Positions 28,129-30,762 of a stretch of DNA of 64,000 nt are shown piece by piece; the first letter of the stretch is position 1, and every line of letters starts with the position of its first letter. A program made the position numbers and the translations under genes. Location of the stretch: the NCBI RefSeq assembly GCF_055900595.2, contig NZ_CM148325.1; one strand, written 5' to 3'. The notes beneath the pieces were generated by a model that saw only the letters and a list, made by a program, of their open reading frames with translations, was not told the origin of the DNA and made no database searches.

Positions 28129-30762
28129 TTATTTGGGCAGCGCAGTTCCCCATTCACGCCACTCTTTCGGTTCACTTTCCTGCAACAGGAAGTGCTTGCC
28201 CTCCTGGGCTTTCGGTGCCAGTGGCGTACCCGGAGGCGTGGCGAAGGCAATGCCGCCACGGATAAACTGGTTAAAGGTGCCGGTTTTCACCACGCCGCCC
28301 GTCAGACCAAAGTCCAGACTGTAACCCGATGCCAACCAGAAGACGGAATTGTTACGCACCAGGTGTTGATAGCGTTTACTGATGCGCATCGCAATCATCA
28401 CGCGATCTGACAATGTCCCCAGCGTCATTCCGGTAACCGTACCAACTTCCAGACCACGGAACAGCACAGGCGTACCGATGCCTAACGAACCGGCTTCCGG
28501 CGCTTCAACAATAATGCTTAAGCCATCCAGGTAACGCGAATCAGTTATGGTGGCCTCTTGTAATTCAAAGTCGCGGCGAGGATTGCCCCGGCCAGGTTCG
28601 ACGTTGATATACGGCTGGAGGATAGTATCAAGATGCTCAACGCCAGCTGCCGAAATTTGCGGTGTGACCACTGAGAAGCGTGTACCACCGCGTGCAAAGG
28701 TCTGGACATATTCCGGATAGAGCACCGCCTTTGCCTGTACTTCATTGCGCGCGGTAATCAGATCCAGCGTCTGAATTTGCCCGATATCAATACCGAGATA
28801 GCGAATTGGCATCCCGACTGCCAGTTTTCCGGCATCGAAAGCGTGGAGCGTAATCTGTCCGCCAACCGCACGGGCCGCTGTTTCGGAAGCATACAGAATT
28901 CGCTTGTCACCTTTACGTTGGCTGGCGCTGGCACCGCTGAGGTTATCGAAGCTAATAGCCCCCTTTAATGCTCTGGAGAGTGGGGATGCCTGTACAGTCA
29001 GACCACTACCATTTAGCTGAACTTTCGCCCCACCTTCTGCCCAGAACACGCTGTTGCTGGTCAGAAGGTTGCGATACTCCGGCTTAATATGCAAATCGAT
29101 ATCAAACGCGTTAGCTCGCGGACGCACAGTAATAACTTCACCAACTTCAAATTTACGGTATAGCACTACCGATCCTGCCTGTACATCCGGCAGCGTCTCT
29201 GCACTCAAACTCACGGTTGTGGTGGGTAAATCGCTAAGGCTGTTCTCCAGCGCTTTTTCCAGATTGGCATACAGTGGATAGCTGGCTTTCATCTCGCCTT
29301 TATCGCCTGGCAGAATACGTATCCCGCCGTTAATCCATTCTGAGGCGCTGGCACCGAGAAACTCAACGCCATCCAGCCCCACCTTCACGTCGACACGGCT
29401 GTTGACGACAAATTTGCTATCGCCTTTTACCAGTTCGCGATGCTGAGGCTCGATGGCGACGGTAAAGGTGACGCCTTTGCTGGTGAGTTTACGATCAATA
29501 ACCTGGCCTACCTGCACGCCGTGAAGAATGAGCGGCTGACCAGCATCAATGCCGTAACTTTCTGGTGCTGTCAGGGTCAGTGTCAGAACATCCGGCTCTT
29601 GTAGCAGGGCTTTTTCGCCTGGCACAACAACGAACTCTTTGCGTGGCTCGCCATCGCCGGGCACCAACTCAAAGGTTTTTCCGGTCAGCAGGGCGCTGAG
29701 ATTGGCATCGCTAAGGGATAATTTCGGGTTGCGTAATTCGATGCGAGTATTTTCACGAAGCAGGGTGACGACGCTGGGATCAACGGTCATTTCCCCAGTG
29801 ACTTTACCACCAGGATTTAAATCCAGTTTAGTCAGCTGTCCGACTTCCAGCCCCTGATACATTAACGGCGTCGAGTCGGCGGTTAATCCGGCCCCACTCG
29901 GCAGTTCCAGTTTTATTATTACGCCACGCTGGCTGTGGGCGAGATCTTCATACAGACCAAAGGTATCTTCCGCCTCGGCAGGTTTCGACTCTTCAGGTGA
30001 ATCGAAGGCAATCGCACCGTTAACCAGTGCCGCCAGACTTTCCAGTTTCACCTTCGCGCCACTGATACTGACGTTGGCATCAACGCCAGAAACATTCCAG
30101 AAACGGCTACCTTTTTTCACCAGGTCGGTAAAACGCCGCTCGATCAGGACATCAATCACCACGCCTTGTTTATTGGGATTGATGGCATAGTCGTAGACTT
30201 TTCCCACCGGGATCTTGCGGAAATAGACCAATGAACCACTGTTCAGTGAACCGAGATCGGGGGCTTGCAGGTGGATCATCAGATCGCCATTATCCAGCCG
30301 ATACTTCGGTTGGGTATCGAGTGCGACAAAGTGATCCTGCTCTTTACCTTTACCCGGCATCATACCGATATAGTTACCACCGACGAGGGCATCCAGCCCG
30401 GAGACACCTGCCAGTGAGGCCTTTGGCGTCACCAGCCAGAACTGTGTCTCTTCGCGCAGCGCATCTTTCATATCAGACTTGATGCTGACCTTGACTTCAA
30501 TCTTACGAAGATCGTCGCTCAGGCTGATATCCTGCACAGTTCCGACTTCAACGCCCTGATAACGAACAGGGGTGCGGCCCGGGACAATACCATCCGCCGA
30601 CATAAAGTCGATGGTGACGGTATTACCCCGGTCCTGATAACTATCCCAAATCAGCCAACCGGCAATCATTAGCGCGATGAACGGCAGCAGCCAGAAAGGT
30701 GAGATACGGCGTTTATTTTTAATCTGCGCTTCAGTCGTCGAAGCGGGCGTTTCCTGACTCAT
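28129..30762 (-). CDS. letB: MCE-domain lipid transport tunnel protein LetB (YebT); start at [11 protein letters not shown]
   Basis: 877 aa with N-terminal TM and repeated MCE domains. Confidence 0.93.

Follow-up and report, generated by a model that had tools for sequence, protein, structure and literature searches.

All four gene overlaps in this stretch of DNA are already known and are ordinary for the compact chromosome of Escherichia coli. The sole modest addition from the present analysis is a wide zone of synonymous constraint that surrounds the start codon of letB, which is embedded in the end of letA. The joint explanation that we favour, and hold with good confidence, is that ordinary placement of gene ends produced all four overlaps, with letB using an initiation site of its own inside letA, znuC and znuB joined by a textbook ATGA, and the two convergent pairs sharing a transient TTAA. 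On a gene-dense enterobacterial chromosome, each of the four would be an ordinary feature of end placement. The importance of these overlaps for biology at large is small; they are a textbook outcome of genome compaction.

The window, by which we mean the whole 64,000-nucleotide stretch taken from contig NZ_CM148325.1, is a segment of an E. coli chromosome whose orientation is inverted relative to the 1.90-1.95 Mb region of K-12 MG1655. Of 5,426 complete E. coli genomes, 5,424 match the 4.1 kb surrounding letAB at 95-99% identity (top match 98.2%), and positions 36000..60000 reach 99.4% identity to E. coli genomes. The initial annotation had reported a 32-nt overlap between letA and letB and overlaps of 4 nt for znuC/znuB, ptrB/exoX and rlmA/mntP. 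It is right on every coordinate, gene name and overlap length (Table 1), the letA/letB case agreeing with the sequence, the open reading frames and the K-12 annotation, and K-12 MG1655 carries the identical four overlaps. Two of them are on record elsewhere. The 2026 LetAB structure paper by Santarossa et al. (PMC13017536) gives the letA/letB overlap as 32 bp in its methods, and for E. coli Huber et al. 2023 (PMC10666635) tabulate letA-letB at -32 and znuC-znuB at -4. Huber et al. also find that unidirectional E. coli pairs are most often spaced at -4 (ATGA) and that complex subunits are over-represented among short overlaps, and they count 707 of 2,987 unidirectional pairs at -8..+6 nt. Given that count, the window is not unusual in such pairs. 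Its same-strand overlaps show no enrichment over expectation.

Table 1. Genes, overlaps and local elements discussed in the text, in coordinates of the window
Feature	Position	Strand	Details
letA (yebS) CDS	30731..32014	-	427 aa; stop TGA 30731..30733; ORF, translation, K-12 annotation, 427-aa orthologues, PF04403
letB (yebT) CDS	28129..30762	-	877 aa; start ATG 30762..30760; ORF, K-12 annotation
letA/letB overlap	30731..30762	-	32 nt; LetA residues 418-427 plus stop, LetB residues 1-11
Shine-Dalgarno-like GGGA	30768..30771	-	5 nt upstream of letB ATG, within letA codons W415-D416
Predicted 6-bp hairpin GCUUCG-ACGAC-UGAAGC	30728..30744	-	3' arm holds letA UGA; MFE fold (7 bp), consensus fold
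Zone of suppressed synonymous variation	30703..30825	-	about -63 to +59 of letB start; about 120 nt, about 4 times the overlap length
znuC CDS	4858..5613	-	K-12 annotation
znuB CDS	4076..4861	-	ATG is first start codon of ORF
znuC/znuB overlap	4858..4861	-	ATGA; znuB ATG overlaps znuC TGA
ptrB CDS	19435..21495	+	stop TAA 21493..21495
exoX CDS	21492..22154	-	220 aa; stop reads TTA on + strand, 21492..21494
ptrB/exoX overlap	21492..21495		TTAA
rlmA CDS	41212..42021	+	stop TAA 42019..42021
mntP CDS	42018..42584	-	188 aa; stop 42018..42020
rlmA/mntP overlap	42018..42021		TTAA

Long same-strand overlaps are frequently mis-annotated starts, and the corresponding artefact here would be a real letB start further downstream. 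More than 80% of overlaps are reported in the literature to be shorter than 30 bp, which would favour such an error, but letB codons 2-31 contain no ATG, GTG or TTG, and the next Met is M32, inside a transmembrane helix. The overlap therefore cannot be erased by re-annotation to another canonical start. Moreover, the letB ATG, with its MSQE(T/N) beginning, is invariant in 81 of 81 loci (80 Enterobacteriaceae loci with LetA identities of 76-97%, plus the window), the GGGA before it is invariant across all aligned loci, and independent gene callers place the letB start at the homologous ATG in relatives that are 44-50% identical. We therefore give an annotation artefact next to no chance of being correct. 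The letA TGA has the same position in 77 of the 81 loci; in the other four it has become GGA, such that letA reads four codons on to TAA and the overlap is 44 nt.

A longer LetB, begun at an upstream start, was also considered and rejected. Upstream of the annotated start, the letB frame stays open over 16 codons (TTG 30804, ATG 30768), but in about 20 species the in-frame ATG 6 nt before that start has given way to ACG, ATA or another non-start codon. The residues that this upstream frame would encode vary non-conservatively (L/Q, W/L/S, T/I, M/T/I, H/P/L) at positions where letA varies synonymously.

Read on the gene strand, the stretch common to both genes is ATGAGTCAGGAAACGCCCGCTTCGACGACTGA (32 nt), with the letB frame at +1 relative to letA. 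letB opens with ATG AGT CAG GAA (MSQETPAS...) at 30762, and its AUG lies 29 nt upstream of the letA UGA. A candidate ribosome-binding site (GGGA, 5 nt, AUG) and the first 11 codons of letB are embedded in the end of letA. The duplex predicted between this GGGA and the 3' end of 16S rRNA has an energy of -4.0 kcal/mol; the sequence preceding letA itself reaches -1.5.

What the shared nucleotides encode is instructive. As described in the structure paper (PMC13017536), LetA residues 419-427 have no cryo-EM density, and LetB residues 1-13 are missing from the model and were omitted from the simulations as low-confidence. These unmodelled segments match the overlap almost exactly, so the nucleotides read in two frames specify a flexible cytoplasmic tail in each protein. 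If the 32 nt code only for a disordered LetA C-terminal tail and a disordered LetB N-terminal tail, dual coding should be cheap there. There is also a practical consequence, in that any mutation within the final 10 codons of letA or the initial 11 of letB alters both proteins together with the letB ribosome-binding site. It is because of this double effect that Santarossa et al. (PMC13017536) refactored the pair; their plasmid pBEL2071, described as carrying letA and letB as non-overlapping ORFs, is the backbone of a fitness-based deep mutational scan of LetA.

The constraint on this region reaches well beyond the overlap. Normalised synonymous entropy was computed per codon bin from 78 letA and 75 letB orthologues, and the gene means are 0.675 and 0.686, respectively. 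Near the 3' end of letA the values are 0.22 for codons 401-410, 0.10 for codons 411-420 and 0.09 for codons 421-427, and at the beginning of letB they are 0.11 for codons 1-10 and 0.35 for codons 11-20. These junction bins are the lowest in both genes, the next lowest 10-codon bins being at 0.44-0.45, and the first 20 codons of letA show no suppression (0.74, 0.78). Ahead of the letB ATG, the zone takes in some 50 nt that belong to letA alone, including the GGGA and invariant rare Leu codons (UUA, CUU). Most simply read, this constraint reflects dual coding plus selection on the translation-initiation region of letB, and the conservation of some 120 nt at the nucleotide level would be the footprint of both. 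A 30S subunit typically covers about -35..+19 around a start codon. The zone (-63..+59) exceeds that footprint, and therefore more than a plain initiation site may be constrained.

One possible source of the additional constraint is a putative dedicated post-transcriptional element at 30703..30825, such as a protein or sRNA site or a conformational switch, that would set the 1:6 LetA:LetB ratio from a single mRNA. The suppression runs about 30 nt past the typical 30S footprint on each side and is unmatched elsewhere in the 3.9-kb operon, with no comparable effect at the start of letA. Furthermore, neither the rare Leu codons nor a small GGCU-GGAC-AGCC hairpin varies except by changes to G-U, and part of the junction DNA motif is kept at 50% protein identity. 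GGA motifs at -31, -8 and +9 of the letB start may be candidate CsrA-type sites. However, the motif is gone at 44% identity and lower, the 120-nt junction folds with a stability no greater than that of shuffled sequences (z = -0.13), and Rfam yields no family for the zone or for the junctions generally. In a consensus fold computed from 75 sequences, the covariation term is -0.26 and the single compensatory pair is inconsistent and often broken, although the region is too invariant for covariation to discriminate. On balance, we regard a dedicated element as quite unlikely. The conserved zone of about 120 nt probably marks where the LetA:LetB ratio (1:6 in the complex) is set, and if this ratio is regulated, the zone is the place to look.

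Several other local features were evaluated. The predicted hairpin whose arm holds the letA stop shows one-sided changes only (G-U to A-U, 11 sequences) and no compensatory pairs. A weak predicted stem encloses the letB Shine-Dalgarno-like site and AUG, in a highly invariant region where covariation support is absent. Terminator-like sites on the gene strand upstream of letB number 3, versus 0.9 +/- 1.0 in shuffles, and include 30844..30822 and 30793..30780. The first of these was rejected as a conserved structure, as its Ala-codon GCN repeats pair in different registers between genera. An internal letB promoter was likewise rejected: a conserved TTGACT has no -10 partner, and a scan of the 300 nt upstream of letB found no promoter-like site. 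Finally, a programmed frameshift that would yield a LetA-LetB fusion was discarded on inspection, with TTTGGGA out of the X XXY YYZ register in the letA frame. The 16-codon open frame on which such a reading would draw is not unusual by chance.

Distant relatives indicate which parts of this arrangement persist. Representatives were drawn from an exhaustive search, and a locus was counted as LetAB if it showed synteny with proQ-prc and/or rsmF or if an MCE protein of about 880 aa followed. The overlap is 56 nt in a relative with 50% LetA identity, 38 nt at 44%, 8 nt at 38% and 11 nt at 36%, and one locus on a short truncated contig (39%) has no overlap, with a gap of 25 nt. A PqiAB-like pair (35% LetA identity) has a gap of 7 nt. 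The letB ATG keeps a constant codon offset, three codons after RLLW or RLIW, down to 44% LetA identity, while the length of the letA tail changes and the tails of LetA and LetB are unrelated in sequence between distant lineages. These comparisons suggest that the letB AUG is fixed just past the conserved RL(L/I)W that ends the last helix of LetA. The overlap length varies (32, 44, 56, 38, 11 or 8 nt, or none) because the letA stop drifts. As judged from these alignments, the specific length of the letA/letB overlap would not be under selection; rather, the start appears anchored and the upstream stop free to move.

In both same-strand pairs, the genes are adjacent on the minus strand and leave no space for a promoter or terminator between them, and the initial annotation had proposed that their overlaps reflect translational coupling. 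This proposal is reasonable for znuC/znuB, which are joined by ATGA at -4, encode one ABC transporter and count as a complex in Huber et al. 2023, but it is weaker for letA/letB, with a spacing of -32 and a 1:6 complex. Huber et al. 2023 (PMC10666635) treat spacings of -8..+10 nt as predictive of termination-reinitiation. The znuC/znuB junction lies within that range, whereas letA/letB, at -32 nt (or with the 44-nt overlap of four species), lies outside it. In the Huber 2023 table (PMC10666635), the entry for znuC-znuB at -4 reads 'CMPLX yes' and that for letAB reads 'CMPLX not', and according to the supplement the spacing of the 1,758 ZnuC-ZnuB COG pairs has a median of about -3 to -4 nt. The layout of znuC/znuB is that of a textbook ATGA (-4) junction. 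Termination-reinitiation has been demonstrated for other pairs of this class, and by analogy coupled translation of znuC and znuB is likely.

For letA/letB, the strongest version of the coupling proposal holds that the 32-nt overlap exists for the sake of tight coupling, with a ribosome that terminates at the letA UGA scanning back 29 nt to the letB AUG. There is precedent in the literature for back-scanning at -38 nt (coat-lysis junction of phage fr) and for coupling of the unfolding type at -50 nt (MS2). The overlap is conserved throughout the Enterobacteriaceae loci, and LetA and LetB form one complex. However, cryo-EM places 1 LetA with 6 LetB in that complex, and therefore strict 1:1 reinitiation cannot set the ratio. 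letB also has its own conserved Shine-Dalgarno-like site, stronger than that of letA, and reinitiation efficiency drops steeply with stop-start distance in native E. coli pairs (Huber 2023, PMC10666635, where downstream spacing was tested). The lack of a conserved overlap length in distant LetAB, with one locus that has no overlap, argues in the same direction, as does the use of a non-overlapping construct for functional selection, as described in PMC13017536. Tight coupling strikes us as unlikely. A full-text literature search combining yebS, yebT and ribosome profiling found no paper.

We infer instead that most initiation of letB takes place at a conserved site of its own within letA, with letA ribosomes facilitating at most. 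Ribosomes that finish letA 29 nt downstream probably assist, whether they prevent the site from folding or scan back a short way. Assistance of this kind from letA-terminating ribosomes would not impose a strict 1:1 ratio.

The two convergent overlaps are certain because stop codons are unambiguous. In each, the palindrome TTAA supplies TAA on both strands; bases shared between TAA and its complement TTA account for such overlaps. They would seem to come and go between genera. The exoX/ptrB spacing is +34 nt in Salmonella, +6 nt in Buttiauxella and -4 in Erwinia, and that of mntP/rlmA is -4 in S. enterica subsp. salamae and +3 nt in Klebsiella, with the differences stemming from changes in the C-terminal tails. 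The window holds a third convergent pair, pphA/yebW, whose stops abut with 0 nt between them.

It had further been suggested that the convergent overlaps imply shared 3' ends and possible antisense interference. No terminator-like hairpin was found at either TTAA; the nearest matches are 250-620 nt away, and their counts equal the shuffle expectation. Neither pair has the G+C-rich hairpin with A-/U-tracts at the stops that marks a bidirectional intrinsic terminator. With no terminator predicted at the junctions, both transcripts have to continue into the gene on the other strand. The notion of shared 3' ends is accordingly inaccurate, since these are mRNAs of opposite strands that each read at least 4 nt, and in practice more, into the other gene, with no junction terminator above shuffles. 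From the absence of hairpins, the 3' ends are probably set by Rho-dependent or unstructured termination or by decay.

Antisense interference is possible in principle but finds no support in the sequence, in conservation or in the literature reached; other genera have gaps of +34 and +6 or of +3 nt in place of the overlaps. In its fullest form, this proposal would make the TTAA overlaps functional, with antisense pairing or RNA polymerase collision reciprocally tuning ptrB/exoX and rlmA/mntP. The variable spacing counts against it, as does the lack of any evident functional link between the paired genes. In addition, the partial self-complementarity of stop codons makes 4-nt [T/C]TA[A/G] overlaps the class to be expected most often between convergent genes. 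In favour of a function, the lack of both intergenic space and a predicted junction terminator should make the transcripts complementary at least at their 3' ends, and a preprint (bioRxiv 10.1101/2022.10.23.513370) proposes collision-based bidirectional termination for convergent E. coli genes. Literature on 3'-end mapping yielded general papers only, none naming ptrB, exoX, rlmA or mntP. Overall, we hold a function for these overlaps to be very unlikely, and prefer to see them as transient products of gene-end placement.

Each junction can be set beside a known system. Both convergent pairs belong with the [T/C]TA[A/G] class of 4-nt stop-stop overlaps; both are TTAA, and nothing sets them apart. 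The znuC/znuB junction resembles the canonical ATGA pairs of Huber et al. (2019, 2023) in its identical -4 spacing and in joining two subunits of one ABC transporter, although coupling in that class was measured on three E. coli pairs other than znuCB. letAB has an E. coli paralogue in the MCE operon pqiA-pqiB-pqiC, where a gene for an MCE protein likewise follows one for a PqiA-family membrane protein, and the C-terminal tail of PqiA, like that of LetA, is short and non-conserved past the RLxWD motif. Unlike letA and letB, pqiA and pqiB do not overlap and are separated by a gap of 4 nt, the -4 overlap of that operon being between pqiB and pqiC. The coat-lysis junctions of phages fr (-38 nt) and MS2 (-50 nt) share with letA/letB a downstream start that lies tens of nucleotides before the upstream stop and in another frame. 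These phage lysis genes rely on coat termination, as they are not known to have an accessible independent start. letB would differ from them in that its start region is predicted to form no significantly stable local fold and is preceded by a conserved Shine-Dalgarno-like GGGA.

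Synonymous variation is suppressed across approximately 120 nt on either side of the letB start, as judged from 78-81 Enterobacteriaceae, and this zone holds the minimum of synonymous variation for the entire letAB operon. The suppressed zone extends far past the 32-nt letA/letB overlap that drew attention to this junction in the initial annotation, and the same comparison revealed no comparable synonymous suppression at the 5' end of letA. No complete E. coli genome in RefSeq exceeds 98.2% identity to the letAB segment of this strain (28000..32100), compared with up to 99.4% for 36000..60000; divergence is locally higher at letAB than around it.

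The length of the overlap is itself variable. In four of the 81 compared letAB loci (L011, L030, L035 and L062, from Citrobacter spp. and Superficieibacter), the letA stop codon TGA is replaced by GGA, such that letA gains four codons (GSAD or GSAN) before a TAA and the overlap grows to 44 nt while letB is undisturbed. An extra in-frame ATG is also present 6 nt 5' of the annotated letB start. However, this codon is not conserved, being ACG, ATA or another non-start codon in about 20 species, and therefore it probably is not used as the letB start.

We also noted two terminator-like hairpins with U-rich tails within the 3' end of letA, shortly before the letB start, where three terminator-like sites are observed versus 0.9 +/- 1.0 in shuffled sequences. 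The larger hairpin pairs repeats of Ala codons, and because the register of this pairing differs between genera, its conservation as a structure appears doubtful.

Coordinates of features near letB, mntP and pphA
Feature	Coordinates	Strand	Remarks
Suppressed synonymous variation	30703..30825	-	
Extra ATG	30766..30768	-	Would give MHMSQ...
Terminator-like hairpins	30780..30844	-	
Mn2+ (yybP-ykoY) riboswitch	42715..42811	-	Upstream of mntP; Rfam 39.1 bits, E = 3.6e-9
Upstream mntP frame	42585..42638	-	Open to ATG at 42638 (206 aa)
Palindrome	42931..43018		Between mntP leader and yobD
pphA (+)/yebW (-) stops	25957..25962	+/-	TAA adjoining TTA, 0 nt between
SraC/RyeA and SdsR/RyeB	25028..25172	both	Known pair; fully overlapping antisense sRNAs

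The riboswitch match upstream of mntP is absent from a default scan because its score falls below the gathering score of 45 for the yybP-ykoY model. Annotation of the MntP start is inconsistent, given that orthologues in public gene calls measure 188, 197-200 or 239-241 aa, and the choice of start has no effect on the 3' overlap with rlmA. Beyond the leader lies a long palindrome whose weak matches to several miRNA-precursor models, on both strands, we dismissed as chance matches to a hairpin; either a REP-like element or a terminator could account for the palindrome.

The initial annotation listed ptrB/exoX and rlmA/mntP as convergent pairs; a third, pphA/yebW, was missing from it. A documented antisense overlap in the window is that of SraC/RyeA with SdsR/RyeB, from which the 4-nt convergent overlaps of coding sequences differ.
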